This document shows, piece by piece, positions 3,797-61,133 of a stretch of DNA of 64,000 nt. Position 1 is the first letter of the stretch. Each line of letters starts with the position of its first letter. Below the pieces are notes generated by a model. The model saw only the letters and a program-made list of their open reading frames with translations, searched no databases and was not told the DNA's origin. Made by a program: the position numbers and the translations under genes. The stretch comes from Dudresnaya verticillata (taxonomy: Eukaryota), in the NCBI GenBank assembly GCA_977862235.1, contig OZ374559.1, forward strand, positions 2,666,001 to 2,730,000, given 5' to 3'.

Positions 3797-3854
3797 GCTT
3801 TCCGTAGTTCTTTTTCATGAATGATTAACGTCCTACTTCTCTCCCAAGTTAGAA

Positions 3855-9945: not shown

Positions 9946-11038
9946 GAGTTTGGAAGGCCTTGGTATCTTCTTAAGACTTAACCTCCTCTCAGTCCAAGAG
10001 ATCGCACGGGGCTGGCGCAATTGATGGCCAGCGTCGGTACGCGGGTTCGGCTCGGGCGTCTTCGCTGCGTTCCGTGATGACCTACTGCACAAGGAAGCTT
10101 GAAGAAATTCGCACTGACTGTCTGGAATCAGTAGGGGGGAATTGTTGGGCAAGTTGAACCGCAAGTGCGCAGGGTTGGATAGGCCAGTCCTGTCTTTCTG
10201 TCTGTCTTTCTGTCTACCGAGACCACCTTCGAGACCCAAAGGAACCTTAATAGAGTAGGGGTATCATCAAGGAGCAGAAAGCCAGGTTTGACCCGACCAA
10301 TTCTCTAGCTTCAGCTAAAAAGTCCTTTTTGTCGAAGTGATACAGATATTTCGACGTGTACACTTGTACAAGCAAGCTTTATCTGAAAATCAAGCTTTTC
10401 AGGGCCCTAAGTATGCCACGTACAACAGCACTGACAACAACGACAGAAACGACAGCATGTGGGACCATCCTGCGCTTCGGAGATCGAGAAGGGCGTTTCT
10501 TCAATACGTCTCAAAATCGGTCCGCATTATGCCTATTCGTGCTGAAGCTAGAGTTACCTGTCTTGCCCTCAGTCCTTCCTTGTAGTCCCGTCCCCTTATG
10601 GGCCCCCCTTTACGCATTGGTTAAAGTGATGCTTCCCCCTGTCTTGATAAAGTAAATGAATCATTTCGATAAAGTATGGAAAAATGTTACAAAAAGTTGG
10701 GCCTTTTCGAGGCGAGTAACTCCAAAGATGCTGAGTTGAGAAATGTTTCCATAAGCGATGCGATTCTGATCCTTTGAATGAGCTAGTCTTGTGACCTTTA
10801 AAATTATCTGCAAGCTTACTGAACACTAATGTACCCAAACCTCTTACTTATTAGTACCCATTTGAATCATGGCCAAGTCCATAAGCTCTTGTTTGCTGAC
10901 AATGCTGCCCGCTTGTGCTGCGTCACCTGTACATAAGATTGCTTACGCGATGCAGTTGTGCTGCACAATGAAGTGGCCATTACCTTGCTTGGGAACCTGG
11001 CTCAGAAGGAGAAGATTACCAAGCTATCCCTAACCTGA

Positions 11039-24100: not shown

Positions 24101-24879
24101 TATCGCCACATCCCGATGTGTGATTCTTGTCCGACCCGAATCCATTGTCGCGAGTTGCGTTCTTCGATAGGAGCGTAGGATTTCGATTCGCAAGTTGGAG
24201 TGAGGGTTGGCCTGATGATGTTCATTCGATCTGCCAGTCGGAGGGGGGCTTAACTTACTCTCGGCCTTGTCATGTTTGGCCTCGAAGATGGGGCGCCTGG
24301 GGTAGGGTACTTGCCGTCTTCTACATACGGCGGGGCATTTGGTGATGGAGGTACGGCCGGTGGACGCAGGGTTTTTTGGAAGAAAAACTTCGATGATGCT
24401 GCAGTGACTACAAGTGCAACGTCGAAGATTGCGTTCGGCTGTCAAAGCCCATTTCTCGACCAGTCGCAGATCCGAGCTGTAAGCATACGAACATTCTGTT
24501 TTTGTGACAAATTTCTGAGCCAAGTTTAACCAACGCGCCTTTTCCGATCTCCCGCCGCCGCCATCGACAAACCGAAACAGACGAATTCCCGCCACCGAAC
24601 ATCAAACCCGTCGGCTGCGTTGGCGAAGACCCTGTTCCCGCCTACGCCCCTCGCCCCATACAGTATAAACATTCGATCCGCCGCCCTCCCCTTCTCAAGC
24701 GCTCCACCCACGCCATCACTAGCGCCAACGCAACCGCCAACACCACCTCTACCCTTCGACGAAAGCCCACCCCACCATTCCCCCTCCGACCAACCCTTCC
24801 ACACTCCCCCAAACAAGCCATCTCCATGCATACTTGGCACTCGATCAACTCTGTCCCAGCCGCCCCCTCATCGACTGCA

Positions 24880-27472
24880 ATGAACCCGTCCGCAAATCAA
24901 CAGCAGCTGCGTATCTACACTGGCGCCAGCTTCCCGCCAGCCAGTCCTGCGATGCCAGAAGTTAACCCCGCACCGATGCCTTTGACGCAGCCTGCTCCAA
25001 TGCATAATGCACTTGCATTTCCCGCTCATCATGCTCACCACGCTCCGACCATGTTCATGTCGCCGTTCCACGGCGTCCCGCAAGCAATGCCGACTTCTTC
25101 TGCGCCGATTTTGACTCCGGCTCGGCAGCAAGCACCACAGCAAGCACCGCAGCAGTGGGCAACCGCCACAGCCTTCGCTTCAAGCTCTCAGTGGAAGCAG
25201 GCCGCAACCCCCGGTGCAACGACTGGGTCTTATCACGGACTCGTGCCGACGTCCGATCCCATGCAGGCGCAAGCCGGTTATGCCCATCCGTCAGCGTCAG
25301 CTGATTTCGGGGCTCCGACTTCCTGGAACATCTATTCTGGTTATGCTTACGCGAATGACGCAACTATTCTCCCTGTGCATGCTGCAGAGCACTATCAGAC
25401 AGATGCTTTTCCCGAGTGTTATCGCAGTGCCAATTCGGGTGAAGCGGCAACACCCTACAGTGTCTATGTCCCCATGCATCAGAACTATCAGAACTACAGC
25501 CTAAACGGCTTTGAAGGAAATGGCTACGGCACCGGAGAGGCCATGGTGGCATACGGTCCTGATCACTTCCAAGCCCAACAGGTCCCGCCCGTTTCTCAGC
25601 CGCTGGATGCCGTGACTGAGCCCATTGGCGCTACTTCAACATGTTCTAACCCCGGTTCAGGAGCTCACGTGTCAACGAACCAGGAGCCCTACCACGGTCT
25701 TCAAGTTCCCAAGGTGGACTTCTTCGGTAATGTCGCTGGTCAAGAGGGCAACTTCAACTGCAGAGGAGATGCAGACACAGGAACTTGCCGGTCTGCTGGC
25801 ATCTTCGAAGATAAGAGTGTGAGAGTAAGTCAGCAGAGTATGGCAACTTCACATGTGGCATTGGATACAAGCAAAGGAGATGTGAATGTTGACCCCAAAA
25901 ATATTTTGGAGCCAGTGCATCGAACCGCTGATATCCGTGGCAAGACTTCCGTTTCTGTGTCGGACAAGGGGATTGCAGACCACCATCAGCCGAGAGGTTT
26001 TGCTTCTGCAAAAAGGCAGCAGAAGAACCAGGCTCATACGAAACAATTAATGATGCCGGGAGCCTTGCAATTCGGGAACTTCATTGTAGAGAAGGTTCCT
26101 GGGTCCAGACCCTTCCGACGTGGGCGCTTTGATTCACCCACCTCACCTCTCTTGTACTTCAATCTGTCGCGGTGGCTGTTAACTGCCGTTTACTCTTCGA
26201 CCGTCGCCTTTCAGATGAGTTTTAGATAAGCCCCCTTACGGGGCTGTAGTCTTTCCTATGCATAAAGGTCTCCATCTTTTTCTTGATTTTTCAGCCTTCA
26301 AGGTTCATGGGCTTGGTAACAAAGAAACAGATTTGCGCACATCGCCTCTACGGAGCGCGAGCGCTTTCATATCTAACACAAGCACAGCCAGGAAGAGGGC
26401 TGGTAAGAAAAAGGTTAGAAAGGGAAAGCAGGGAATGAATTCTTTCTCTGCCGACGCAACTGCACCAGTCACTCACAAGAACAAGTCTCATATGCTTCCA
26501 GTCTCAGAGAAGAAAGAACGCGTTCAAGTTCCCTCTTCCGGTCAGAACTCTTCAAGACGTATCCAATCTACCTCGAGGCCTCCATCTGTACAGTCGGCAA
26601 AGGAGGCGAAGAGTTCATCTCCAGTTCATCTTAGGAAGCAGAACCTGAGAGTAGAAAGTGGCATCGATGCGGTTGAGCAATCCGCTCAACTTCCAGGAGA
26701 ATCTTGGGCTACGGTTGCCATGAAATTTCCTTCGGGTAACTTCAGTCAGTCTGTATCGAATACTGCTGCTGCGAAGGGTGGTAGAGACAAGGATATACCG
26801 AAGCTAGACACAATTTCGCCTAGAGTGGCCCGAGTTCCGGGAAAGAGAGAGCATCAGAAACACGGCACTGTTCCAGACTCCGGAGCGTCTGGTCAAATGA
26901 GCCGCTCGGAAATCGTGAGTGAAATGCTGGCGAGTCTCGACATGACTTCTAACATCATCCGCCAGAGCGCCAGAACACTTCCAAGTAGCACGGCTACTGC
27001 TTCGAATCCCGAGAAACATTCTGCACACAGCAATATTTCTGCCTCGTCGCAGAACGAAGTTCCGATTTCGCTGCAAGGAAAAGAAGAAACCAAGAGGGTC
27101 TCGGAAGTGGATCGAGCATATGTAGGGAAGAAGGGCAGTGACTATCGTATAAGCGACACGAAGAAAGGAAGTAATTTCTTGGCTTCAGATATGACTTCGA
27201 AGCTCTCCAAGGGTACTGGAAAAGTGGTCGCTCCTACCAAAAAGACCGCTGTAGCCGCGGACGAGAAGAACTGTAATGCGGGAGGGGGCCTGCCCTTGGG
27301 TAGAGAACCTCAGAATGACGGAGTTAACTCCACCGTTAGTACCCCCACGCCTGCTGCCGAAGATGGATCCCGCCTTGCGGAGAAGGACGCGCTTGCGCGG
27401 ACTGATGGGGATGGTTTCACTATTGTCCGACGAAAGAGGAAGCCAATGAGGAAGAGACATCTTAAAGCCTAA
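24880..27472 (+). pseudogene. Low-complexity protein copy B, interrupted by a retro-insertion
   Basis: ORFs 24826..26229 and 26258..27472 join into one 813-codon frame once 154 bp (insert plus one TSD) are removed. Copy A has the empty site (RGRFDFSAF). Confidence 0.7.
26135..26282 (+). mobile_element. 5'-truncated CRE-like insertion with 6-bp TSD
   Basis: TTGATT at 26129-26134 and 26283-26288. Encodes LTSLVLQSVAVAVN (compare LLSLVLQCVAVSVN). Ends GCCCCCTTACGGGGCT...ATAAAGGTCTCCATCT. Confidence 0.85.
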
Positions 27473-28386
27473 TTTTCACTTGGGAGAGAAGTAGAACTTT
27501 AATCATTCGTGAAAGAAGGCCTGGGATATGCCCTCAAGAAGAGGACAAATCGAGGCCACGACAGTGAATGTTCATGAGAGAGAGGGGTACTTTATTCGTC
27601 AGAGCGAGAGATATAGCGGTAATGTGGAGAACCTGTGAACCGAGCTTGGTGAAGAGGACATCGCGTTCCATTACTAGCGAGGTGCCCCGGCGAGCAAAAA
27701 TAAAGTCTGTAACATCCCGCCGACTAGCCTCGAAACCGGGACCGAGGGTTCCGTAATTGTCCGCTGCAAGGGGGTGGAAGTCGGCACCTAACGCGAGGCA
27801 AGCGCAGTTGACTTTGCAACGATTGCACCGTTCAGCAACCTGAAGAGCATGTCGGGGAACGCCCGGTATTGCAAACAGAATGGGGGCTGACGATCGTGAC
27901 GTCAAACATCTGGGGATGCGGAGAGAGGAAGGGGTGAGACGTAGAGGTCTAATAGCCGCTGCCGCTGTAAGCCCTGGTGGAAAGGGAACTCTCGAGGGGA
28001 TCGCGAAAGCCGTTATGGCGCGTCGTACTGACTTGTGACATTACCACTGTCCAATAGCTGCCATTAGGGCCCGGGGATGGCGCAAGCGACAATAGGTAGG
28101 GAATGTGTGAAAAGCTGGAAGGCTCGGAGAGGGGAGGACCGAGGGAGACTTGGAGACGAATCCCGGGCGTCGTGAGAAAACCAGCACTGTGTGCCCCCAC
28201 GACAACTTGCCGTCTTTGTGATTTGCCCGGTGTTGCAGTTGCGGAAGGTCCGGTTTATCCCGTGGTAAATTTAAGTTCATCGCCAACGTAGATATTGTTA
28301 AACTTTACTCAACTTGGGTTTGAGTGTGTCGAATTCGGAAGCTGGTAGAGCGTCGGATACCACTGCCAATATTATCTTAAGGAAGG

Positions 28387-29577
28387 CTAGGCTTCCAATG
28401 TGAGGCTATCCCTCTCCATCAATAACGATTTCGCAGCTTCGCCTCCATGAATCATGCTGGAAACATTTTCTATTCTCTCTACGGGGCGACTTTGCGCCCT
28501 TCGAACCCTACCATAAAGGTCCCCATCTCTCTCTATTCTCTCTATAACAAATGCTCGGGCGATATCCGGCTGGCCCGAGAAAGCCTGAAGTGCAAATGCG
28601 TATTGTCTCAATGCCTCGTTCCAGGAACTGCTTTCGAACGCAAAGTCACCGCAGGTGACCGCAGCACAACCAGTTCGATGGGCAAGCACCGGGTCTCCCG
28701 TCATGTTGTATCCTCGCTTGAATATTTCCATGGAAGCTCGAAGCAATTGATATAAGGCCGAATGTATGCTTTCGGGAAAGATACTGTCGACCTGGGAGAT
28801 AATGTAGGATAGCCTAGATGCGGTTGCTCCTGTCTGATTTGGAAATGATCGGCATCGGTATGCAGAATTTCGCAACAGCATCAAGATCACGAGAAACTGT
28901 CCGTACGCCAGCAAGATTTCAGCACAGCCGATGGTTTCGCAAAGCCCCGCCGGTATTGAATTTTGCAGAGACGCTAACCGCTGGCTCGCTGGCGATCGGA
29001 GAGAGAGAAAATGCATTCGAAGCACCTCCTCAAACTGAGCGGCAGTTTCTGGTCCAAGGCAGTTGAGCACTGCGCTAATCGGGAGCTCGTAAGTGGAATG
29101 TTCCGCCAAGGAAGAGGAGTTCGGCTGTTCCTGTTGCGCTTGAACTTGAGAAGAGCTATACTGCGGCATTGCCTGCCCAGTGCTGTAGACCTGTTCATCA
29201 ATGTCATACGTGATGTTGTTTTGATGCATATGGGGCTCTGACTTGTAGGGAGCCAATGACTCATGAGGTGCTGCGGACGGGTTCCACTGAGAGTCTGGAG
29301 CCATGGCTTCAATGATTGTCGAATGAGGCAACACCTGTTGCTGACCCAGAGTCCATGTCGATGCAGAAGAAGCCGGAACGTCGTTCGGGAAATCATGGCC
29401 TAGCTGCATAAGCACGGCCGGAGCCGCATGGTGTGGCAATGCAGTTGTGTGCTGCATTGGGTGCGGCATCCACAATAGCGTTGGTATGGAGTTGACTTCT
29501 TGCATCGCAGCGGCGGCTTGCGGGAAGCCGGCGCCAGGGTAGATGTACGGCTGCTGCTGATTTGCAGAGGGATGCAT
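28387..29577 (-). CDS. Hypothetical protein; N-terminus paralogous to copies A/B, with a different, probably helical C-terminus
   Basis: 396-aa ORF beginning MHPSANQQQPYIYPGAGFPQA. Upstream DNA is also similar to copies A/B. PISAVLNCLGPETAAQF recurs as a fragment in ORF 32083..32412. Confidence 0.65.
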   Translation of the reverse strand: MHPSANQQQPYIYPGAGFPQAAAAMQEVNSIPTLLWMPHPMQHTTALPHHAAPAVLMQLGHDFPNDVPASSASTWTLGQQQVLPHSTIIEAMAPDSQWNPSAAPHESLAPYKSEPHMHQNNITYDIDEQVYSTGQAMPQYSSSQVQAQQEQPNSSSLAEHSTYELPISAVLNCLGPETAAQFEEVLRMHFLSLRSPASQRLASLQNSIPAGLCETIGCAEILLAYGQFLVILMLLRNSAYRCRSFPNQTGATASRLSYIISQVDSIFPESIHSALYQLLRASMEIFKRGYNMTGDPVLAHRTGCAAVTCGDFAFESSSWNEALRQYAFALQAFSGQPDIARAFVIERIERDGDLYGRVRRAQSRPVERIENVSSMIHGGEAAKSLLMERDSLTLEA

Positions 29578-29835
29578 TGCAGTCGATAAGGGCGTAGTGG
29601 GGACCGCGTTGACCGAGCGCTGAGTCAGCGGGTAGATTGGTTGTTTGGGGAGTGGGTAGGTGTTGGTTGGAGGGAGAATTGAGGGGGTGGGCTTGCGCTG
29701 CAGGTGGCGTTGGGAGTTCGGTTGGCGCTAGTGAAGGTGTGGGTGGAGCGGTTGACGAGGAGCGGGTGTTCGGTGCGAACGGTTATATGGAGTGGGAGCG
29801 AGGGGCTTAGGCGGGAACACGGTCGTCTCCAATGA

Positions 29836-31871: not shown

Positions 31872-33192
31872 GGCATAAAATGGGGTTACGATGCTTCATC
31901 GGTGTTTTATAGTCCAAAATCACTAGCGAGTAGGTAATGTACATTCTATGGAGGGCCATATTCTTCTTTCAGCACGCAATCTTAGACTACAGCCTGTCGC
32001 TCAGTTTGGGGAGGAAATTGGTATCTACCTTTCTTTCGTCCCTCGACAGGAAACAACGGAAATTTTGACACATCCTTGCGCACTACCTGAAGAGAGAGAT
32101 GGGGACATGGTTCCCTATCGACCGAATATAGAGAGGGTAGATACGAATATTCTTGTCAAACTGAGCGACAGTTTCTGGTCCAAGAAAGGAGCGCACTGCA
32201 TTAATTGGGAAACCCCCGTCTAGTATGTCCGGGGTCGGAACATGAACGGTTTCCTCCAATAGCTCCTCGAAGATCATCTCCTGTACTCCTGAAGAAGATG
32301 CAGAAATTACCTGCGGGTTGCTCACTCTATCTCGATGTCTCTTTGCGTTGTCCCCACGTGCAGTGATTCTAGGGAATTGGCGGCTTACTCTTGAAGTATC
32401 ATACGAGCTCAAAACGTGCCCTTTTACGTGGTAGCTTTCTTCGCGTTCTCCATGGCGTTCTGTTCAATGGCCATCTATGAGCTTGATACAGTATTTGTAC
32501 GAGTTAGGGTGTGAAAGAAATGATGTAATCGAGGTTCCATTGCTTCAGTTGAAGCGCAAGTCGGTGGTTAGGGAGTGGGAGCAAACTGCTTCCTGTCTGA
32601 ATGCGAGATCTCTCGGCAGGGTTTCTTTCAAATAGTTGATAAACGGTGAAGCGGGGTCTGCAGAATGAAGATGGGTATTGGCAGTATAAAGATGGAACAG
32701 TAGTCGAAGTATAAAAGTAGCTTTGGATGCTGTGGATGGATACTTTGGGCAGAAATGGATTGCTTGTCGAATCAATAATATGGACTGCAGTCCGCCACAC
32801 AGAATCAATGCGACGTAAAAAAGTGATGGGTGTCGTCGTCAACTGTACTTTTCTTCTACAGTAAGAACTGCAGTGCTACGGTAACAGTAAACTAGCAACG
32901 AATGCATTCCAAAACATACCCGTGCTAGTTGAAACGATAACAAATAGTTCTTCAAGCCGTGAACGATTTCAAATACAGAAAGCATTTTCCAAGCTGCGCA
33001 AGCTTGTAGCAGTTCAAAGTTACACAAAGAGCCACTTCCTGAGATACTTCCAGTCGGGTCTTACCCCTGGATTCAGCTCTGCCAAGAGTCACAGTAGTGG
33101 ATTTGCGCAGGATGAGTTTATGGAACCCCCCACTGTGATTAACCTTAGAGAAACGGAAGTGCAACTGTACAGGCTTTTGACCGATATCGGAC

Positions 33193-33594
33193 AATGAAAA
33201 CATTAATTGTCCTACGGTCGTATGCATACTGATTCAATCATTCTACAGTCGTATGCATACTGATGAAATGGATCTACAGTCGTATTAATACTGCAGATAC
33301 TATTCTACGGTCGTATTCATGCTGACGAACCATGTTTCTGTTTTATGTAGTTGTATTCACAATGGTTCTCAGTGAGCACTTTCTTCTAACTTTATTCAAC
33401 GGTCGTTTTACGTTTTAGAGGCAGTCTTCGCCTGCCTATAAGTACCGCCTAGTTCTCTCTTGTTCTACCCTCTCAACAGGACAACATTTTATCTAGACAA
33501 CACAATCTGATCTACTCTGTTCTGTAAATCTACTGTTCCTCTGATACCGCTGCTACTGCCAACTTGCTACTGAGCCAAATACCATTCCTTTATT
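33193..33594 (+). repeat. 5' LTR (AAT...ATT)
   Basis: Direct repeat of 38065-38466; three substitutions seen by eye. Confidence 0.95.
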
Positions 33595-33607
33595 GTTATG
33601 GGCCCAG
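33595..33607 (+). promoter_or_regulatory. Primer-binding site, half-tRNAiMet (Hemivirus) type
   Basis: GTTATGGGCCCAG directly follows the LTR and matches the Drosophila copia-type PBS. Confidence 0.8.
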
Positions 33608-36600
33608 GCTCATCATCGGCGTATCTGCCGACTCGCCCAAGGTTTTCTTGGGATATCAAAAATGTTCCTTGGACAGATGGCAAAGGCAACCAAGAAGAGT
33701 ACTCACTATCTGTTTCTTTATGGAATGCTTTCCATAACAGGCTCCCAGACTCTAACTCAAACAAGATACCCACGGAACTTCGTGGTATAATGCTTCAGTC
33801 CCAGCTTTATGGAAGAGCAAAAGATCTATGCAAATCCATTCCCGATACTGAGATCCAATCTGCTACTGGCTCAGAAGCTGTGGTGAATGCTGTATACAAA
33901 CGAGATGCACTCTCGGTTGTCAGTGAAGTTTACCAAAACTTTATTGCCCTATTAAGTACCAAGCGCGGAACCACGGAGACATACAAAAACTTCGAATCAA
34001 GATTCGACGCTCAAGTTTCCAGATTCAATGCTGGCTCCAGTACAACAAAGCTCCCAGAAGCCCTTACTGCTTTTATGCTACTTGCAAATTCTGCCGTGGA
34101 TAACGGTCAAAGAGTTTCTGTTCTTGCAGCAGCTTCGAACAACACAAATATAGCTCCTACAGCTACAACTGATGATTTTCTCGATTCAGTTTCATACGAG
34201 AAAGTAGCTTCTGTTCTAAGGCAGTGTGACCAAGTCATGACTGAGAATATTCGTCCCCTGTCTGCAAATGCTGTGAACACTCAGTTCAGAAGACCGATCT
34301 TCCCAAGGAATCGCAGAAGGCTTACACCTGATCAGCTTGCAGATCTTAAAAGCCGCAGCAAATGTCGTAAGTGTCACAAATTCGGACACTGGCACTCTGA
34401 TCACACAGATGACGGTAAACTCAAGCCTGGAGTCAAGTCTACTGATAATCCTGCTCCTTCTGATGCAAAACCGAACACACAACCACCGAAGAAAACCATG
34501 ACCTTCAACATGGGTCATCTACTCGATTCCCACAATGAGATAAGCGAAGACTTTACAGGCCCCTTACTTGATGACGGTGGTCCGTACAGTGGTCTAGGGA
34601 TGTCCGAGTTTATGATACTGCAGCCCATTATCCTACCGGACTGGGAAGGCAATCTGGACCCTATACCCCAACAGCTTCAGTCTTGTGCCTTTTGGCAATA
34701 CGGTGCAGGGCAACACTCCAGTGAGGCAAGGAGAATTCTCGGATCGGTCACTTTAATGGCTCGCACTGATAAGAACAACCTGGTGTCTATCCGACACCTA
34801 ATCATTGAAGGCTCCTCGCAATGGATTATCGGCCGTAATGTCACGAAGCATTGTGACATTGTTCATGTTGGCGATAACAGGCTCGTTATGCCAACATCTG
34901 AAGATTCAATCGGTCTCCAAGACAATGGATTCCACAGTTACATACCCTATAACGTATTTCTACCGAACAGTTCCGACCTGTCATCCCGTGTCACGAACAA
35001 GTTCTATTGTGCCACTGCTCAGATCAACCAAAACCATGACACTCGTCCCTTTGGAGACATCAAGAAGATTGTTGATAAGGTCCATCAACACGTCTGTGGA
35101 CACTCTTCTTATTCTGATATCAAGATATTGCTCCAGCGAAACAAAATTTGGAATGCTGAAGTACAGAAATATTTGTCCCGTGTCCTGGATAGATGCTCAA
35201 GTTGTTTAACTACTTCTCAACCGAAAGACACCCGGAAGGTCTCACTAAGCTCCATGAGCAGGAACTTTAACGACGTTGTATGCATTGATCATTTCCACCT
35301 TGATATGAACCGCGTGTTTCATCTCATGGACTCTGCTTCAAGATATTCGACCGGCGATGTTGTAAGCACTATGACTATGACGGAAGCTATTAATTGTTTT
35401 GAATCTCTATGGATAACACCATTCTGGACCCCCAAATGTGTTCTATTTGACCAAGCGTTCAACAATACCGAGTTCATACATTATCTGAAAAGTCAAGACA
35501 TTGAAACTCGCCCTATACCTCCGCGTCGCCACAACAAAAATGTCATTGAATCTAAGCACAGAGTTATTCGAGATATCTACCTACGCCTGAAAGAAGGATG
35601 TACAAATGACTCTGCTGAGCACCAAAGACTCCTAGTGCAGCAGGCACTACGAATATCAAATGATCTGTACGGAAATGACGTATGTTCTGCTCATGAGTTG
35701 GCGAAAGGCTATACGAGACCTATAACATACGGAGAATTTCCTGCACAAGTTCCTGAAGAAATTTCCAAGGCCCACGATGACCTCATGGCTATGCGAAAAT
35801 TAACCCGCATCCTTCACTCCAAGTCAACTGCTGATATACCATTCAATGTTGGAGATACCGTACAAGTTTATATCAAAGAACAAAATGCCAAGCGCGGCAA
35901 GTGGTCATCTCCGAAGGTGATTTTATCGTTCGATAAAACGTCTGGAACCATTTCAGTTCCTGGAAAACGTGGACGCCAAGTCCAAGCAGCTGTTGAAGAT
36001 GTCCGTCCTGCCCTACCTGTGGATACACTAGGCAGTTCCATCCAAGAAGCAATTGATGCTCTCTCCAAAAGTCTGGATGACAGCATTGATGAGCTCTGTT
36101 CTAAAGAAGATGTGGCATCAAATGAAGAGCTTGAGACTACCACTATAGAGGAGGTGGGATACGAAAACGATGACGGAGATATTCTCAGCTCACACCCCGA
36201 CGTTGGTGACGTCATTGATGTATATTGGCCCCTCGACGATATGTTCTACACTGGAAAAGTGGCATCAATTAACGAAGATGACAACCAGTACAACATTGAT
36301 TACAATGATGGTGACAAAGAATGTCTCAAGTTATCGGATGAGACCTGGCGCTATAGCTCGGATGAAGCAATAGCAACCAACAACGTACAAATATCAGATC
36401 AAACGCTCACAAGTTCTCTGCAAGAGGTTCTTGGGTCGTATACTCTTGCCTTCGGTCACAAAGATTTTATGCGCTACCAGACTCAAGGGCTACCAACGTT
36501 TCCATTGTTAAATGCTTACAAAAAAGAAGAAGAGGCCTTTAAGAAAACAGTCAAGATGGTCCATGCTTCTGATATCCCAAAGCATGCAAATGTCATCACA

Positions 36601-38040
36601 AGCCATGTGATATACAAAGTTAAGAATAATGACGATGGCTCGATGAAAATGAAAGCACGCATAGCGCCACATGGTAACAAGGACAAAGAACGCTTTCAGT
36701 TGAAAACAGACTCTTCAACCTGTCCGCCAACTGGTATTCGCATTTTGCTGTCCCTCGCTGCTCAGTTCAAGTGGTTCTTGGCCAAGATCGATTTTAAGAG
36801 CGCGTTTCTGCAAACAGGAGAAGCAAAGCGAGACGTCTATGTCGTTCCGCCACGAGAAAGCGACGACAAGCAGCACTATTGGTTGTTGCTGACTGCAGCA
36901 TATGGTCTTGTGAACGCCAATGCTAAGTGGCAGGAACAAAGTGACAATTTCTTAACATCGATCGGTCTCCGCCAACTCGTTTATGTTCCACAGTTGTTTT
37001 ACAAGAAGGACGCAATTGGTTCATTGCAACTCGTTGCTGTCAAAATTGTGGACGATGTACTCTTTGCTGGTGACCAGTCAACTGTTCGGTCAACTATTGG
37101 AAAGATACAGGAGCGCTATGAGCTCGGGACAATTGTTTACGGTCCGGGCTCGTTCCTTTTCTTTGGCCTCCACATTGCTCAAGATGATGAATGCTCTATA
37201 AGGATACAAGCTGATGAAAAGTTGGAAAACTTAAACTGCTACCCCATTGATCGACAAAGAAGAAAGCAAGGAGATGAAGTTCTAAATGCTGTCGAAACTA
37301 GTTCCTTCCGATCAGTCAACAGCTCGATTGGATGGCTTGGAATTGCCGCGTCGCCATTCTGTGCCTTCTATGCCAGTCATTTACAGCAGAAGGTACCTCA
37401 AACCACTGTACACGATATGATCTCTCAAATCAACTCTTTGAGACTGCTGCAAAAACTTGGAAGTACCATCATGTACAAGCGACCAGCAGATAAGAAAGAG
37501 TACCCTCTATCCGTTCTGATGTTTGCAGACGCTAGTCGAAGTTCTGACTATGGCCAGCTTGGTTTCATATCAGGTCTACTTATCGGTGACTTCGAAATGG
37601 GTTCTATATTCCATACACTTTCATGGTGTTCACACAAGTCAAAGAGACCAGTCAAATCTATTGGAGCTGCAGAAATACTAGCGTCTGGTGAAGCAATCGA
37701 TGAAGGCAAAGTTCTGGTTAGTGCCTACAAGACGCTTCTCGACGTTGAAGTTGACCTGATGGTCGCTCTTGACTCCAAGGATTTATATGAGACTTTATCA
37801 ACCTGCCGCAACTCCATTGATCGCTCTATTCGGGCAGATGTCAGCGTCATTCGATATGAGTTTGAGACGCACAAAGTGAATCGCATCATCTGGATTCCTG
37901 GCAAGACCAACCTTGCAGATCCACTCACTAAGGCTAACAGCCCGCTTGTTCAACCCTTACAGCTGACAATGTTTTCTGGAGAGCTCAGCATGAACTTCAC
38001 AGATAATCTCTTTCGCAACTCAAACCAGTTCACTGGTTAG
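33598..38040 (+). CDS. Copia Gag-Pol polyprotein (1480 aa) with an extra Tudor-like domain
   Basis: Knuckle CRKCHKFGHWHSDH; protease LLDDGG; integrase H..H..CSSC, CIDHF, FDQ, IESKH; RT KARIAPHG, DFKSAFLQ, YGL, IVDD; RNase H FADAS, AAE, DSK, LADPLTK. Confidence 0.95.
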   Translation: MGPGSSSAYLPTRPRFSWDIKNVPWTDGKGNQEEYSLSVSLWNAFHNRLPDSNSNKIPTELRGIMLQSQLYGRAKDLCKSIPDTEIQSATGSEAVVNAVYKRDALSVVSEVYQNFIALLSTKRGTTETYKNFESRFDAQVSRFNAGSSTTKLPEALTAFMLLANSAVDNGQRVSVLAAASNNTNIAPTATTDDFLDSVSYEKVASVLRQCDQVMTENIRPLSANAVNTQFRRPIFPRNRRRLTPDQLADLKSRSKCRKCHKFGHWHSDHTDDGKLKPGVKSTDNPAPSDAKPNTQPPKKTMTFNMGHLLDSHNEISEDFTGPLLDDGGPYSGLGMSEFMILQPIILPDWEGNLDPIPQQLQSCAFWQYGAGQHSSEARRILGSVTLMARTDKNNLVSIRHLIIEGSSQWIIGRNVTKHCDIVHVGDNRLVMPTSEDSIGLQDNGFHSYIPYNVFLPNSSDLSSRVTNKFYCATAQINQNHDTRPFGDIKKIVDKVHQHVCGHSSYSDIKILLQRNKIWNAEVQKYLSRVLDRCSSCLTTSQPKDTRKVSLSSMSRNFNDVVCIDHFHLDMNRVFHLMDSASRYSTGDVVSTMTMTEAINCFESLWITPFWTPKCVLFDQAFNNTEFIHYLKSQDIETRPIPPRRHNKNVIESKHRVIRDIYLRLKEGCTNDSAEHQRLLVQQALRISNDLYGNDVCSAHELAKGYTRPITYGEFPAQVPEEISKAHDDLMAMRKLTRILHSKSTADIPFNVGDTVQVYIKEQNAKRGKWSSPKVILSFDKTSGTISVPGKRGRQVQAAVEDVRPALPVDTLGSSIQEAIDALSKSLDDSIDELCSKEDVASNEELETTTIEEVGYENDDGDILSSHPDVGDVIDVYWPLDDMFYTGKVASINEDDNQYNIDYNDGDKECLKLSDETWRYSSDEAIATNNVQISDQTLTSSLQEVLGSYTLAFGHKDFMRYQTQGLPTFPLLNAYKKEEEAFKKTVKMVHASDIPKHANVITSHVIYKVKNNDDGSMKMKARIAPHGNKDKERFQLKTDSSTCPPTGIRILLSLAAQFKWFLAKIDFKSAFLQTGEAKRDVYVVPPRESDDKQHYWLLLTAAYGLVNANAKWQEQSDNFLTSIGLRQLVYVPQLFYKKDAIGSLQLVAVKIVDDVLFAGDQSTVRSTIGKIQERYELGTIVYGPGSFLFFGLHIAQDDECSIRIQADEKLENLNCYPIDRQRRKQGDEVLNAVETSSFRSVNSSIGWLGIAASPFCAFYASHLQQKVPQTTVHDMISQINSLRLLQKLGSTIMYKRPADKKEYPLSVLMFADASRSSDYGQLGFISGLLIGDFEMGSIFHTLSWCSHKSKRPVKSIGAAEILASGEAIDEGKVLVSAYKTLLDVEVDLMVALDSKDLYETLSTCRNSIDRSIRADVSVIRYEFETHKVNRIIWIPGKTNLADPLTKANSPLVQPLQLTMFSGELSMNFTDNLFRNSNQFTG

Positions 38041-38048
38041 ACTCAGCT

Positions 38049-38064
38049 AAGAAAGCGGGAGGAG
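38049..38064 (+). promoter_or_regulatory. Polypurine tract
   Basis: AAGAAAGCGGGAGGAG lies immediately before the 3' LTR. Confidence 0.85.
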
Positions 38065-38466
38065 AATGAAAACATTAATTGTCCTACGGTCGTATGCATA
38101 CTGATTCAATCATTCTACAGTCGTATGAATACTGATGAAATGGATCTACAGTCGTATTAATACTGCAGATACTATTCTACGGTCGTATTCATGCTGACGA
38201 ACCATGTTTCTGTTTTATGTAGTTGTATTCACAATGGTTCTCAGTGAGCACTTTCTTCTAACTTTATTCAACGGTCGTTTTACGTTTTAGAGGCAGTCTT
38301 CGCCTGCCTATAAGTACCGCCTAGTTCTCTCTTGTTCTACCCTCTCAACAGGACAACATTTTATCTACACAACACAATCTGATCTACTCTGTTCTGTAAA
38401 TCTACTGTTCCTCTGATACCGCTGCTACTGCCAACTTGCTACTGATCCAAATACCATTCCTTTATT
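38065..38466 (+). repeat. 3' LTR (AAT...ATT)
   Basis: Direct repeat of 33193-33594, followed by TSD CGGAC. Confidence 0.95.
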
Positions 38467-39275: not shown

Positions 39276-40319
39276 CTATGGCATACGAAGTTCTTGTCCA
39301 GGGTAGATAAGGTCTGGGTTTTTGATACAATCATTGATTTGGACGATTTCCATGTACCGACTTCCGCTGCCAAGCTGCGCCTGTGCAATCTTCCAAAGCG
39401 TGTCGCCAGATTTCACGGTGTAACGATGCGCACTGTCTTCAAGACTGCTTTTCGCTTTCTCATGGATCTCTTTCAATTGTTGAAGGGCGGCGTCGGTCCA
39501 ATCCAGACAACTGGAAGAAATCCACTTTTCTTCGTAGGCCTTGATGGCCTTTCGTTGCTTTTCTTTTGAGAGCCCATTGGAACGGCGGACAACACTTTCC
39601 AGTGCAGAAACGTTGTGTTCGCCGAAAGCGATGGCACCGTCCCGCCTGGCAAACTCAACAATCTCGACAATGTTATTGCCAATTTCTCTGGGGACTTCGA
39701 GGCCGGTTCGCAAGTACGGGACGTCCGCCGCGGAGAAGAATTTCTGAAACAGGAAGTTGAAGGAATCCTCTCGTTTGCGGCCGAGTATAACGGGGAGGTC
39801 AGTCTCAGCAATGCCGCTTTCTCCTGACCAAGCGTGATGGATTATGTCCGCGATGTCTCCAGAAGCTTTATGTACAGTGGTGCTTTGGGAGATGTTCTTG
39901 TCGTGCAAGATGTATTTTTCGAACAACGTTGGTTCGAGGCGTCCGACCTCGTGGCTATTCAGGATGGAGTTTTTGGGTAACAGGGCGACGAAGCGCAGCT
40001 TGACATTGGTGTCGGGGGCGACATGCAGGAAGGCGCGGAGCTCTGTGACGCGCCAGGCGCTCTTGAAGAAGTCCGGGGTGAGCAGGAACACTGCGACGCC
40101 AGTGGGACGGGTGTGTAGGACTGCGGTGAGGATTGAGACGAGCTTGCCTTGCAGAGCGGTCTCGTCGAAGAAGATTGAGGGTTCTGCGTCGGCCTCTTCG
40201 GCGTGGGCTTCGAGGACATCTTTGGTAGCGCGCGCAAGCTCGCGTGTGGTGAAGCCGGCGGGGAGGGTTTCTGAGCCGTGGAAGCTTAGGAAGACGTCGA
40301 TGCGGTGGTCTGGGCCCAT
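39276..40319 (-). CDS. TIR domain - helical (death-fold-like) region - LysM protein
   Basis: TIR motifs IDVFLSFHG, IFFDETAL and VAVFLLTPDFFKSAWRVTELRAF. C-terminal LysM YTVKSGDTLWKIA..LGSG.RY.EI...N..IKNPDLIYPGQELRMP. Intact, intronless 347-aa ORF. Confidence 0.9.
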   Translation of the reverse strand: MGPDHRIDVFLSFHGSETLPAGFTTRELARATKDVLEAHAEEADAEPSIFFDETALQGKLVSILTAVLHTRPTGVAVFLLTPDFFKSAWRVTELRAFLHVAPDTNVKLRFVALLPKNSILNSHEVGRLEPTLFEKYILHDKNISQSTTVHKASGDIADIIHHAWSGESGIAETDLPVILGRKREDSFNFLFQKFFSAADVPYLRTGLEVPREIGNNIVEIVEFARRDGAIAFGEHNVSALESVVRRSNGLSKEKQRKAIKAYEEKWISSSCLDWTDAALQQLKEIHEKAKSSLEDSAHRYTVKSGDTLWKIAQAQLGSGSRYMEIVQINDCIKNPDLIYPGQELRMP

Positions 40320-42076
40320 CGTGTGGGGGGGGGGGGGGGGGGGGGGCGGAATGGCGTTGGGGATGGGGGCGAGGTGTCGGTCGGGGGTGGGCGTTTAAGC
40401 AGAAGAGGTTGTGGGGACATGGGGGTGGAGGGTCAGGGATGAAATGGTGGGTGCACAGTTGTGCAGCAATGTAGAAGGTGATTGCGATTCGAAACGTTTA
40501 ACAAGAATGGGATTGTTCCCGAAAAGGGAAACAGCCGTCGTCATAAAATACGTCGGAGTGAGCTGTGTTGCCTTCCAACGCGGTTGGTAGCTGAGTTTAA
40601 GCCGCAATATCGATACGAACATTGTGCTGATAGTTCAAATACTGTACAGTACAGCCGCAACGGTAGCTCTGCGGGGGCCCATGATTTGGGCTTGCAGAAG
40701 CCCATTCTTGCACACGTCACGTCGGTAACCATGCACGTGGGCCCTTGCGCGCATATGCCCCATGCTGTGCTGGCCGGAGCGCAGCTTCGAAGCTCCCTCT
40801 GCTTTCGAGACTTGAACGACATGTTCGATTATTCTGCTTGAACAATAGTTTACGTTCAGACCAGCCTATCCTTGGAAAGCGATGTTGATGTTGAATTCTC
40901 TAGTGCACCTGTAGGGCTCCAGCGCGGACGACTAGGGCCCTTTCGCAAGCGTACCGCCTCGAGACATTGTAGAGAACAGGGGGTGCTGTGTTGGGACGGG
41001 GAAGGCTGCGCCTGGGAAGCAGCAGGCCCCCTTATCCAGACCTAGACGTGACAGCTGACATAGTGCCTAGCCATTTTGCTTAGTTGATGCTTTAGTCTGT
41101 ATCTAGAGTACGAGAGCACTGGTCATGAAGGATGTATGTAGTTGCTCTACGAAGACACCTCCCTCGTTCCATAACTGCCTCTATCAATCTGAATATCCCG
41201 ACGTGCTTAAATGTTGCCATGCTTAGGACACATTGACTAGATCACTACGTTGCGGTGCTCCTCAACTTTAGAAAAGCAAACTTTACCAACACTGCGTAGC
41301 AGTCAAAATTACTCTGTCAAGCACAACAATGATTATTACAACAGAAACGTTCTTGGAACAAGGGCAGCATGTTACTTGCCTATCAGCCATCGTCGCTCGC
41401 ACAAGACCACGTTAAACAAACATTAAAATCAAGCATCACATTACCCATCCATCTTGAGCACGCCCTGTGTTACAAATTCCCTTGATGGTTGGCCACTCCC
41501 GCTCTCTATCTGACACATCTTACTATTCATGTAATACGCTTCACTACAGCTTTGACACGTCAAAGTCCCTATTCCTTCCTATTAATGTTGAATGCAATGC
41601 AATGCACGGTTCCTGTTGAATCAAGGTCTCACATTCTCTCCCTTTCTTCCACGATTCTTACACGAAAGCAGGCCTTTGCAGCCCAAGCCGACGCACTCTA
41701 AATCCTGTCCTGTAAAGTTTATCATCACACGAAAGCAGTAGAACGAATACATGGGTATTTTAATTACCACGCACAAGGGATATCAGCTCAGGTCTTGGAC
41801 GCCACAGGCATTATCCTCCGCGAGGAACACAAAATTAGGAGAAGCGTGTAGCTGGACCTATAGACCATAAAAAGGTCAAGAATAACGACAAGATCAAGAA
41901 ACTCCGGACAAAACCAAGCCTCCAAGAGCAGTTGAAGCCTTTCGCTTCGTGTCCAGAACAGAATTGCGATTCCGCAACAGCTGTGCAGATGGCAGGCACG
42001 GCAGTGGGAGCCAGTTTCAGATAGCACACATCGATGAGTTTTGGAGCATCTGATGAACAGAAGCAAATTATATATA

Positions 42077-47300: not shown

Positions 47301-48578
47301 TGGGGATAGCGAGCTCTGCCGAGCGTCCTGAAGCAGCAACAACCCGATACAACATCTACCCGAAAGGGGTTTCTACGGGTCTGTGCAACTTTTAGCACTA
47401 TATTTGGCACTTCACTGTTTGGGGCTGAACTATATGGAGTTACCAAATTTAGAGGTTCTGGAGGGGATATAAGCACTACAGTCCAGCTTAGACAACCCCT
47501 CCGTCTCCCCTAAGTTCTTTCCTTCGTTCTCCCGCCCACCCACCCTTCATCTTTCTCGACTTCAAGTCCTTCCTTCGTTTCCATAATTTCTGTTGAGCAT
47601 TCTTGCTGTTTGTTGTTAGTCATTGCATTCGACTACTCTTCTTCTGCAACAATAAAAGTAGTCATTTCCTTTTCAAGGCCTGGCAATCTATCGCCGTCGT
47701 CTTGCCCTTCAGGTAGGTCCTTGAGTAGACCGGGGGATCTACTACCGCGTTTCGAACCCTACCGTAAAGTTCCCCATCTCTCTTTATTCCAAAGATTTAA
47801 AGAAAGCCCGGTAGGGCGACAAGAAAAGCTATGATCTTGAGCACCCGCCACCAAACAAAAATGGAGCAAAAAGCACGACCAACTGATGACATCTCGATTT
47901 TACAGGCAGTCATGCTTTCAATTTGTTTCATGAACGAGGATCTCCTTTCCCGCAAGCAAAACAGTAGCAGTTCCCATCATGGGGAACGGGGAACAAGAAG
48001 TAATGGTTCGACACAGGCCTTGTCGATATTTGTAAGAGAATATTCACCAACGCGCTGAAAAGTACAAATCCTTCCATGCTCCACTCAGCCCCTCAGCCAG
48101 ACGATAGACGAGACGAGCTCCCTGTTGGTTTTCACCAAAACGATCTTGTTGGGATGGGAACATCGAGGGGTGCATCATCACAAGGGCTTGCAGTGCAAGC
48201 CGCTCCGTAGAAATGTTGAAGATGGCTCACTGGGGCAGTGTGATGGCGGTGGCGTTGGTGGCGGGGCGTGCGTGCCGCATGGACAGCCAGACAAGACCGG
48301 TCAGGGGGCTCCGCCGAGTGCTCACCGGCAGCGTAGAAAACAAAAAACATCCAATACCGCACGATTCACAACTCGCGCGTGCAATTCAGTCATTGCCATT
48401 CACCGCCGCCTCCACGCTCCCACCTTCCCGCTCCGCCTCGTCCCCACCCGCGCCGGTGGGGGCGGCCTCCCCTCCGCCCAGCGGCCGCCCCCGCCGCTAT
48501 AAAGCCGCACGCACACCGCCGCGCACCGCACCACCACCTACGAACCCCACCCCCAACTCTCCCCTACCACCCGCCACG

Positions 48579-49268
48579 ATGCTCCCGCACCTCTCCGCCG
48601 CCGTCGCTCTGCTCCTGCTCGCTGTCGTGCTGCCGCGGCCAGCCGCGGCGTCCATGTGCTCGGGCACGGCGTCGTACAAGCTAACGCTGTCCAACTTCCT
48701 CCAGCCGTCGGCCTTCTCCAACTCCATCCCGCCGACGGGGCTGGTCTTCTCGCCGCCGACGCTAGCCACGCACTCTGCGCGCGTCTCGCTGCTGGTGGCG
48801 GGCGCGTTCGCGTCGCCGCAGATCCGCGACGTCGCCGAGAAGGGCGACAACACCGCCCTGGTCGCGCTAGCCACCGAGCTGCAGTCGCTCGGGCTGGTGC
48901 GCGACGCCGTCGCTGCGGACGGGCCCACGCGCCCCGGAAACGTCACCGAGCTCGACTTCACCGTCTCCTGCAACGCCACACGCCTTTCGGTCGTCGCTAT
49001 GATCGCCCCCAGCCCGGACTGGATCGTCTTCATCCCAAGTCTCGACCTGTACGACGCTGACGCTGCGAAGTTCCGCGAGTACAAGTGGGGCGATTTGCGC
49101 GCATATGACGCAGGCACGGATAGTGGCCGTGGCTTCACTGACCCCGCTGATGTCTCGCTCGATGTGCCTACCGTACCGCAGCTTAATATCGCCCTGCTGG
49201 AGCAAGATGAGACTGACGCTTTCGGTGACAAGGCCGTTGGCCGCTTTGTTGTTAAGCGCGTCGAATAG
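48579..49268 (+). CDS. Secreted Spondin_N (F-spondin/mindin-type) domain protein
   Basis: Signal peptide MLPHLSAAVALLLLAVVLPRPAAA; FSP...ATH, AEKGD, MIAPSPDW, LRAYDAGTDSG. TATAAA at 48498-48503. Confidence 0.85.
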   Translation: MLPHLSAAVALLLLAVVLPRPAAASMCSGTASYKLTLSNFLQPSAFSNSIPPTGLVFSPPTLATHSARVSLLVAGAFASPQIRDVAEKGDNTALVALATELQSLGLVRDAVAADGPTRPGNVTELDFTVSCNATRLSVVAMIAPSPDWIVFIPSLDLYDADAAKFREYKWGDLRAYDAGTDSGRGFTDPADVSLDVPTVPQLNIALLEQDETDAFGDKAVGRFVVKRVE

Positions 49269-59636: not shown

Positions 59637-61133
59637 ATGCAATTCACGGCGACAGCCGCTCTGCTGCTATGGAGCTTGATCAACATTGTTGCTGCTCGCT
59701 CCAGGCAGACTCCCCAATGCACCTACCCTGCTTGGGAGGCCACAGGTATTTATGAAGAAGGAGACTCGGTCTCTCATGAAGCCGCTCAGTACAAGGCGAA
59801 GTGGTGGACCCAAGGTGAGGAGCCTGGAACTACAGGACAATGGGGAGTTTGGGATTACCTCGGACCTTGCTCGGGAACGCCCACGCCAACCCCGACGCCA
59901 ACACCAACTCCGACAGGAACTGGAACACCCACACCGACGCCGCTTCCCGCTGGTTCATTTGTCGGTGCCTATTTCCCGAACTGGGTTAGCTACGATCGAA
60001 GGTATTTCGTCAAAGACATTGATACCAGCGGGTCAGCAGCGAAACTTACGCATATCTTGTATGCGTTTGGAGATGTTGACTCTTCCGGAAAATGCAAAAT
60101 GTACGACACCTGGGCAGAATATGAGAAAGCCTTCTCAGCAGCCGAAAGTGTTGACGGTGTCGCCGATTCATGGGATGATCCCCTTAAGGGTAATTTCAAC
60201 CAGTTGTTGAAGCTCAAGAAAAAGTACCCGCACATCAAGGTGCTGTACTCGATCGGTGGGTGGACTCTCTCAGGTAACTTCGGAACAGCTTCCAAAAACG
60301 CCGCGCAATTCGCACAGTCGTGCTATGATATGATTTATGATCAAAGATGGCTGGGAGTCTTTGATGGCATCGACATCGATTGGGAGTATCCCAATGATTG
60401 CGGACTCACTTGCGACGATAGCGGCCGCGACGCTCTCACAGTCCTGATGAAGGCAGTGCGCGAAAAGTTCCCAACTCAACTCGTATCTGCTGCGATCGCA
60501 GGTGACGCTAGGTCGGACGGAAAACTCACAAAAGCAGATTACGCTGGAGCAATTGAATACATGGACTTTGTGATGGTAATGACGTACGACTACTTCGGTG
60601 CGTGGGATCCCAGTGGTCCAACAGCCCCGAATGCCCCTCTCGAATCGTATGACGGTATTCCGATCGAAGGTATGTATGCCGACCAAGCTATTGACTACCT
60701 GCTGGCCAAGGGCGTGCCGGCCGACAAAATCATTTTCGGCATGCCATTCTACGGCCGTGGATGGCAGGGAGTTTCGCAGTCTGCCCCAGGAGGATCTGCA
60801 ACAGGTCCAGCTCCCGGAACTTGGGAAGAGGGTACTGATGACTACAAGGTCCTTATCAACAGCTGTCCGCCGACAGGGCCCATTGCAGGAACTATGTATG
60901 CATTCTGCTCTGGTGAATGGTGGAGCTATGACACTCCTTCCACCATCGCCAGCAAGGCGATATATGCTGCCAATAAGGGTCTTGGTGGGTCATTTGCATG
61001 GGAGCTGAGTGGCGATACTCCAAACGCAGATATGCTGAACGCCATGGTCTCTGCCTCTAAGTCTGTGAAGTCAAGTTTGAGAGTTCCAGGCATTAAGAAG
61101 AACCTCAAGTGCGATTGCAATTGCTCCGGTTAG
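59637..61133 (+). CDS. Secreted GH18 chitinase with N-terminal CBM5/12 (ChtBD3) and PT linker
   Basis: Signal peptide; AW...IY..GD.VSH...YKAKWWTQGEEPG; (PT)n linker; LTHILYAFG, SIGGW, FDGIDIDWEYP (DxDxE), VMTYDY, GG.FAWELSGD. TATATAAA at 59537-59544. Confidence 0.95.
   Translation: MQFTATAALLLWSLINIVAARSRQTPQCTYPAWEATGIYEEGDSVSHEAAQYKAKWWTQGEEPGTTGQWGVWDYLGPCSGTPTPTPTPTPTPTGTGTPTPTPLPAGSFVGAYFPNWVSYDRRYFVKDIDTSGSAAKLTHILYAFGDVDSSGKCKMYDTWAEYEKAFSAAESVDGVADSWDDPLKGNFNQLLKLKKKYPHIKVLYSIGGWTLSGNFGTASKNAAQFAQSCYDMIYDQRWLGVFDGIDIDWEYPNDCGLTCDDSGRDALTVLMKAVREKFPTQLVSAAIAGDARSDGKLTKADYAGAIEYMDFVMVMTYDYFGAWDPSGPTAPNAPLESYDGIPIEGMYADQAIDYLLAKGVPADKIIFGMPFYGRGWQGVSQSAPGGSATGPAPGTWEEGTDDYKVLINSCPPTGPIAGTMYAFCSGEWWSYDTPSTIASKAIYAANKGLGGSFAWELSGDTPNADMLNAMVSASKSVKSSLRVPGIKKNLKCDCNCSG

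Follow-up and report, generated by a model that had tools for sequence, protein, structure and literature searches.

What would a protein that joins a TIR domain to a LysM domain do in a red alga? The question is raised by one gene, P0001, in a 64,000-nucleotide stretch of the Dudresnaya verticillata genome (contig OZ374559.1, positions 2,666,001 to 2,730,000; hereafter the window). A sequence-only reading of this DNA had proposed a two-part TIR-LysM protein that acts as a cytosolic glycan sensor. As a hypothesis this stands with respect to the TIR fold, its glutamate, the recurrence of the fusion and the XkdP/Kbp type of the LysM. The layout, however, is TIR, predicted death fold and LysM, with a conserved third domain of ~90 residues between the two that had been seen, and Arg90 takes the place of the motif cysteine.

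The P0001 gene

P0001 is encoded on the minus strand by an ORF that runs without stops through 347 aa (39276-40319), and the earlier description of a single intact ORF was correct. An in-frame stop lies 72 nt 5' of the ATG, and alignment shows that the start position is common to the relatives; we therefore consider the gene complete and single-exon. A run of ~20 C residues is found on the coding strand at 40327-40346, 6 nt ahead of the start codon. GC3 falls from 0.71 in the TIR to 0.50 in the LysM. The features of the gene are as follows.

39276..40319, minus: P0001 gene (TIR, death-effector-like domain, linker helix and LysM); intronless ORF, 347 aa
39825..40307, minus: divergent plant-like TIR domain, aa 5-165, from fold match and family profile
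40041..40043, minus: Glu93, equivalent to the catalytic Glu of TIR NADases, from alignment to Roq1/RUN1
40050..40052, minus: Arg90, replacing the family Cys, from the 41-row family alignment
39510..39782, minus: predicted death-fold (death-effector-like) domain, aa about 180-270, from structural matches of models
39429..39494, minus: linker helix, aa 276-297, after the KW..W motif and leading to the variable C-terminal partner, from DSSP on the model
39279..39422, minus: single C-terminal LysM of XkdP/Kbp type, aa 300-347, from Pfam PF01476 (E 3.7e-13)

A hydropathy scan gave a highest 19-residue value of 1.39, located within the TIR, and the N terminus is not hydrophobic; nothing therefore points to secretion or to a membrane anchor, in line with the absence of a signal peptide or transmembrane segment claimed before, and we infer that P0001 is a cytosolic protein. 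Its full-length AlphaFold2 model has a mean pLDDT of 86.9 and a pTM of 0.83. A paralogue search within the window found the middle domain once, as well as a second, different TIR.

The N-terminal TIR domain

Structure comparison of the full-length model placed TIR-containing chains alone at ranks 1 to 14, headed by the RPS4/RRS1 TIR (4c6t_B; Z 13.9, rmsd 2.9, 146 aa aligned), with RPP1 next (Z 13.0) and then Cat1. The family profile matched Roq1 at E 4.5e-9, and the language-model neighbors of the P0001 TIR are TIR_2 clusters at 0.93 to 0.94. By fold, profile and neighbors the claimed N-terminal TIR is thus upheld, but not by Pfam, in which it stays under the cut-offs (13.9 bits versus 28 for TIR_2, E 0.081; 12 versus 21.3 for TIR). 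The lack of a TIR profile hit had been named in advance as evidence against the reading, and P0001 on its own does lack one; its relatives P0047 and P0052 score above the Pfam TIR cut-off. Neither the TIR nor the middle domain of P0001 is called by Pfam, PADLOC or NCBIfam.

The stretch AWRVTELRAF, to which a catalytic-type glutamate had been assigned, is present, and Glu93 shares a column with the Glu of WCLEEL/WCLDEL in the plant TIRs Roq1 and RUN1. This column holds Glu in 34 of the 41 family rows with a residue there and has lost it in 7. At residue 90 the same 41 rows have Cys 37 times, Ser once, Pro once and Arg twice, in P0001 and in P0062, the other complete LysM fusion, so that P0001 lacks the Cys of the plant-TIR W-C-x-x-E motif. 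In some plant TIRs, the Cys three places before the catalytic Glu is reportedly important for making 2',3'-cNMPs. P0001 has the predicted TIR fold and, in alignment, the Glu at the catalytic position, and its TIR likely cleaves NAD+.

A predicted death fold between TIR and LysM

Residues ~172-292 of P0001 are conserved family-wide and include a KW..W motif whose K, W and W are each at least 90% conserved (29 rows). When the middle domain was modeled alone, from 34 sequences, it formed six long helices (pLDDT 89.4). The model was compared with 48,161 solved chains, and death-fold chains account for 44 of the 50 matches listed. Death-effector domains (DEDs) exclusively fill ranks 1 to 8 (Z 8.6 to 7.3): PEA-15 is best, with Z 8.6, rmsd 2.6 and 85 of 90 residues aligned, a score within the range below Z 13 in which, the tool cautions, helical bundles may match through a generic helical arrangement. 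Caspase-8 (Z 8.2 and 8.1), MC159 (Z 8.0) and FADD (Z 7.6) are further DED matches, and the top DED alignments span the whole domain (82 to 85 of 87 to 90 residues). Below or level with the lower DED rows are a PYD (Z 7.2) and a DD (Z 7.1), with CARDs at 5.3 or less; for a few structural rows (CED-4, RIG-I, Dark/Dronc, cPOP1 and vFLIP) the domain identity is our assumption. The 6 listed matches that are not death folds comprise one axonemal chain at Z 7.3 and five at 4.8 or less. The full-length P0001 model, which is independent, gave the same DED matches for residues 180 to 270 (PEA-15, Z 9.4).

Other searches with the middle domain returned less. Foldseek against the PDB gave nothing at E ≤0.001, the rows of highest probability being caspase-8/cFLIP DEDs (0.63), and against viral models it likewise gave nothing at E ≤0.001, the most probable row (0.44) being herpesvirus N13, which we take to be a viral FLIP. 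When a sequence profile was searched against 177,635 PDB sequences, caspase-8 came first at E 0.021, over 38 columns taken from its two DEDs together, each of which aligns at the sequence level with helices 4 and 5 of the middle domain; an unrelated CID domain scored about as well (E 0.025). No Pfam DED was found for the middle domain or 13 relatives at E ≤10, and the isolated middle domain drew no match from the ESM Atlas (best 0.75). An RxDL motif, or charge triad, is a feature of the DED family; R-x-D-[LIV] occurs, at any position, in just 3 of 29 rows and is absent from P0001. On the strength of the models, the middle domain very probably adopts a death fold, and true homology to DEDs is a reasonable expectation held with less assurance; "DED-like" is accordingly the label that we prefer to "DED." One clade (P0049, P0050, and P0051) lacks the central helices of the middle domain but retains its two ends as well as the TIR, which makes these proteins natural deletion controls.

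A mobile module with exchangeable partners

Word-seeded homologue searches returned few relatives, and the family emerged only with a full HMMER scan using residues 1 to 293 as the query (LysM excluded), which gave 43 proteins at E ≤0.001. TIR and middle domain are both present in 32, five have a partial middle domain and four are short pieces without it; the remaining two, P0063 and P0077, have a middle domain with no TIR match and begin at or after the TIR end. NB-ARC is listed in 7 of 41 scanned relatives (P0044, P0056, P0060, P0061, P0073, P0079, and P0081), three times with WD40 and once with TPR, and WD40 is found in two further relatives, P0054 and P0058. The partner is kinase-Sel1 in P0065, GAF-GGDEF in P0064 and Roc-COR in P0039, and one scanned relative has the module joined to the start of a GTPase; by Pfam, P0001 itself contains no NB-ARC/NACHT NTPase. 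Judged by these layouts, TIR plus predicted death fold is a mobile module and LysM is one of several exchangeable partners, of which NB-ARC, Roc-COR, kinase and others are oligomerizing or sensing domains.

An architecture search across relatives, which had been suggested as a check, showed that the LysM fusion recurs: 2 of the 43 homologues, in other 50%-identity clusters, also end in a LysM. These are P0062 (348 aa) and P0077 (220 aa on record, without the TIR part). Since two homologues share it, the fusion is very probably not an artifact, and since P0062 is just 26% identical to P0001, either it has persisted while the proteins diverged widely or it arose repeatedly.

The C-terminal partner of P0071 is beta-rich and by eye resembles an actinoporin/aegerolysin-type lectin, with no Pfam match; that of P0078 has a repeated motif of no known family, and P0060 carries a tandem double module ahead of its NB-ARC. 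Relatives of 1300 to 1600 aa sit on contigs of 5 to 13 kb, which fits intron-poor genes. The distant matches P0040, P0069, P0076, and P0064 may come from other lineages. Pattern scans, a narrow test, confirmed the module at 0 loci in prokaryotic genomes and in 0 of 17 stretches of viral contigs and gave no match on plasmids. From metagenomes the scan retrieved a single locus, L001, where the match is confined to the TIR of a bacterial ATPase-TIR gene; at 2698-5549 of L001 a TIR gene lies beside this ParA/CobQ-like ATPase-TIR gene, a bacterial pair that looks FxsC-like by eye.

The LysM domain and its origin

The C-terminal LysM is the sole Pfam call in P0001 (49.6 bits; cut-off, 20.9), which bears out its earlier assignment. 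It is modeled poorly: only 3 of 30 alignment rows covered it, it appears as two helices with no strands, and the last two blocks of the model have pLDDT values of 66 and 45. The bacterial look that had been ascribed to it (YgaU/Kbp/XkdP style) was confirmed, the nearest domains being phage XkdP-type and Kbp/SafA LysMs. All three fused LysMs (P0001, P0062, and P0077) have phrog_380 as their best PHROG, and the phage records closest to LysMs of this type are annotated as XkdP, tail protein or endolysin. SafA, LytE and Kbp have the same GDTL and NPDLIYPG stretches in their LysMs. The P0001 LysM is 44 to 46% identical to the other two fused LysMs, whereas one phage-type LysM matches it at 74% across 50 aa, the latter value being inflated because the bacterial and phage comparators were retrieved with P0001 as the query. 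None of 50,697 phage records contained near-identical DNA, the best match being 73% over 78 nt. By sequence resemblance the domain likely came from a bacterium or a phage, and it likely binds microbial wall sugars (peptidoglycan or chitin). Binding by a single LysM is usually weak.

Trees were built for the LysM and for the module, the latter from 41 rows that omitted P0047, P0048, P0063, P0067, and P0075 and in which P0060 was entered as two modules. The phylogenetic check that had been proposed gave a divided answer: the three fusions split apart in both trees, but AU tests did not reject a single origin (p-AU 0.48 and 0.31). Because one origin is allowed and Arg90 is common to both complete fusions, we do not claim convergent gain of the LysM.

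Two other roles were considered and set aside. Kbp-like potassium sensing is unlikely because the ion site of Kbp is located in its BON domain (PMC9481166, from the part available); P0001 has no BON domain, and its alignment to Kbp covers the LysM only. A membrane LysM receptor does not fit a protein without signal peptide or membrane helix (hydropathy scan) or kinase (Pfam).

Genomic surroundings

The window is eukaryotic, with LTR and LINE-type elements and single-exon Hint, spondin and GH18 genes. Its other features are as follows.

355-945, minus: reverse-transcriptase-like fragment near the COR-TIR frame
1080-2384, plus: COR-TIR reading frame; TIR_2 at E 9.6e-9, Glu kept in KWTMLELEE, aligns with the Roc-COR protein P0039
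3531-3763, minus: further COR fragment
3813-5880, 24359-27514, and 28387-29832: inverted duplications of an unannotated Pro/Gln/Ser-rich gene family, 71 to 95% identical
8362-10239, minus: Hint (hedgehog-like) protein; weak fasciclin match upstream, Ser in the VASSY motif
11275-14763 and 16901-19639: LINE-type RVT_1 ORFs
33189-38466: young LTR retrotransposon of Copia type; its 406-bp LTRs share 99.0% identity, and its 1480-aa ORF (RVT_2) is intact
48213-49268, plus: single-domain Spondin_N protein, GC3 0.78
59637-61133, plus: GH18 chitinase, single exon, secreted-looking; bacterial-style CBM5/12, Pro/Thr linker, DGIDIDWEY intact

The COR-TIR frame has no death-like domain. Stops lie just upstream and the reverse-transcriptase-like fragment is nearby, so the frame may represent a ROCO-TIR gene that has been disrupted. 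The GH18 chitinase is 19 kb from the LysM gene, a matter of mere position that implies no functional tie. The P0001 gene and the Copia-type element downstream of it are 810 bp apart, and the ORF of the element has a weak Tudor-like match at aa 869-914. The Hint protein terminates in VASSY, presumably Hint motif J. In the available parts of the respective sources, red algae and mosses are described as having Ser, Thr or Asp instead of the motif-J Cys (PMC2362128), and Hint modules as expanded in Ceramiales (bioRxiv 10.1101/2025.02.11.637652). Together with the COR-TIR gene, the set of module partners, both of which resemble what is known from Chondrus and Pyropia, and the long relatives on short contigs, these Hint features make a red-algal origin very probable.

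Comparison with known systems

Animal DEDs (FADD, caspase-8, cFLIP, PEA-15, and the viral FLIP MC159) resemble the predicted six-helix fold of the middle domain at Z 7.3 to 8.6, with rmsd 2.2 to 2.6 in 7 of the top 8 rows. The differences are an identity of 7 to 16%, the missing Pfam DED match and RxDL, and the position, since animal DEDs precede a caspase or death domain whereas the middle domain of P0001 sits behind a TIR; its conserved KW..W motif and the extra helix that follows also set it apart. MyD88 consists of a death domain and a TIR, and APAF-1 is CARD-NB-ARC-WD40. The logic of MyD88, a death-fold adaptor joined to a TIR, is that of P0001, and the logic of APAF-1, a death fold with NB-ARC-WD40, is that of its relatives. 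In P0001, however, the TIR, which belongs with the plant NADase-type domains (best matches RPS4/RPP1), comes first and the death fold second, the best-scoring matches of the predicted fold are DEDs and the sensor is in the same chain. P0001 shares LysM with the plant receptors CERK1 and CEBiP but has one LysM and no signal peptide, membrane helix or kinase; it shares the LysM sequence type with Kbp/XkdP proteins but has no BON or phage tail domain.

As described in the portion of Kaur et al. 2021 at hand (PMC8195603), bacterial bDLD3 systems pair death-like domains, TIR effectors and NPCBM/FGS lectin domains against invaders. Death-like adaptor, TIR and carbohydrate-binding domain thus occur together there, as in P0001; the bDLD3 domains, in contrast, are close to death domains proper and have an RxD motif, the parts are on neighboring genes and the lectin is not a LysM, whereas P0001 is one chain (PMC8195603).

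Architectures seen among the module homologues have been reported from red algae, in what is accessible of each source: TIR-NBARC-WD40 (bioRxiv 10.1101/2021.11.29.470438) and TPR-ROCO-TIR (PMC11378527) in Chondrus crispus, and NB-ARC plus WD40, NB-ARC plus TPR, and TIR plus kinase in Pyropia yezoensis (PMC6928737). The accessible portions mention no death-fold domain, and that of PMC6928737 reports finding no LysM genes in Pyropia. The NLR-like proteins carry an NTPase, unlike P0001. The Chondrus proteins are likened to module relatives by architecture, and no named match ties them to the P0001 TIR subfamily.

We found no description of a soluble TIR-LysM receptor in the open literature, in agreement with the earlier remark that none was known; one could be present in the source data of PMC8195603 or in subscription papers such as Gao et al. 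2018 and the Chondrus genome paper. Nor did the open literature, taken without subscription papers and supplements, describe a death-fold domain in red algae. The parts of P0001 are, in sum, already known, and its logic has animal and bacterial parallels.

Proposed mechanism and alternatives

We propose, with a probability of about 0.5, that P0001 is a cytosolic sensor in which a glycan clusters the protein, the death fold polymerizes and the TIR fires. The LysM would bind peptidoglycan or chitin in the cytosol and, the bound glycan being polymeric, P0001 would cluster; clustering would cause the death-fold domain to polymerize, nucleating and then extending an assembly, and the assembled TIRs would cleave NAD+. 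LysM and polymeric ligand would in this way stand in for the NB-ARC or Roc switch that would cluster the same module in the NLR-like relatives, which the death fold could also recruit via like-with-like contacts. Background consistent with this scheme is that TIR enzymes require clustering (PMC8195603) and that TIR and NB-ARC genes rise upon infection in red algae (PMC6928737), both as given in the available text.

The same layout could belong to a noncatalytic regulator that docks by its death fold on TIR/death-fold NLR-like relatives and damps or tunes them, as cFLIP and PEA-15 do, with the LysM targeting or releasing it. The inhibitors PEA-15 and vFLIP MC159 are among the top structural matches, both complete LysM fusions have the Cys90Arg change near the Glu, P0001 has no NTPase switch, and a large share of the relatives consist of little more than TIR and death fold. 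Both fusions nevertheless keep Glu93, which 7 of 41 rows have lost, and inhibitory and activating DEDs tie in Z, so that the structural match is uninformative on sign; we think this role unlikely. It is less probable still that the middle domain, though death-like, acts within its own chain only, as a lid or scaffold that restrains the TIR until the C-terminal partner moves, with no like-with-like polymer. Such a role would suit the pTM of 0.83, which suggests fixed packing of TIR and middle domain in the full model, the absence of RxDL, clade P0049-P0051 (central helices lost, both ends kept) and the finding that no complete homologue has the middle domain without the TIR, the 2 exceptions among 34 (P0063 and P0077) starting at or after the TIR end. 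The HMMER query, however, spanned both domains and so favored recovery of both, the entire DED is matched (82 to 85 of 87 to 90 residues), and death folds act mostly by like-with-like binding, as the accessible part of PMC8195603 has it.

Improbable, too, is a LysM that serves as bait rather than lectin and senses a pathogen protein (effector or wall enzyme) or other macromolecule, like the integrated domain of a plant NLR. For this speak the highly variable C-terminal slot of the module, nearest LysMs that come from phage tail proteins of XkdP type, and the need, under our proposal, for a wall polymer to reach the cytosol. Against it, the GDTL and NPDLIYPG stretches match LysMs of SafA, LytE and Kbp, and in Pyropia, according to the available part of PMC6928737, no host LysM receptor to mimic was found. 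We give very little credence to a chimeric assembly with bacterial DNA or to a chance, unexpressed fusion. The gap between 74% and 44 to 46% LysM identity, the GC3 drop and the young LTR element nearby would fit one or the other, but the 74% is inflated by retrieval with P0001, the 50,697 phage records gave no near-identical DNA, the flanks are eukaryotic, two independent proteins have the same architecture, and the AU tests are compatible with a single origin of the fusion.

Implications

Seaweed pattern recognition is represented, in the parts of PMC8307928 and PMC6928737 available, only by candidate receptors from transcriptomes. The LysM form of the module, being small and soluble and having a guessable ligand, makes it testable in vitro. 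Tentatively, and with doubts that outweigh our confidence, we suggest more broadly that red algae possess their own undescribed immune family, in which a TIR NADase-DED unit heads APAF-1-like NB-ARC-WD40 and ROCO proteins and of which P0001 may be the minimal member, a one-chain cytosolic receptor for peptidoglycan or chitin that signals via death-fold filaments.

Of greater weight than the LysM fusion, its most testable member, would be the death-fold module concealed in an NLR-like family that is probably red-algal; standard annotation would miss the middle domain because Pfam does not see it. Death-fold adaptors are a hallmark of animal cell death with bacterial roots, as the available text of PMC8195603 puts it. 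If the prediction is true, a death-effector-like domain behind the plant-like TIRs of a red alga would extend death folds to another multicellular lineage and would explain how the TIRs of algal NLR-like proteins come together. The broader suggestion, if true, would further mean working death-fold signaling in a photosynthetic lineage related to plants.
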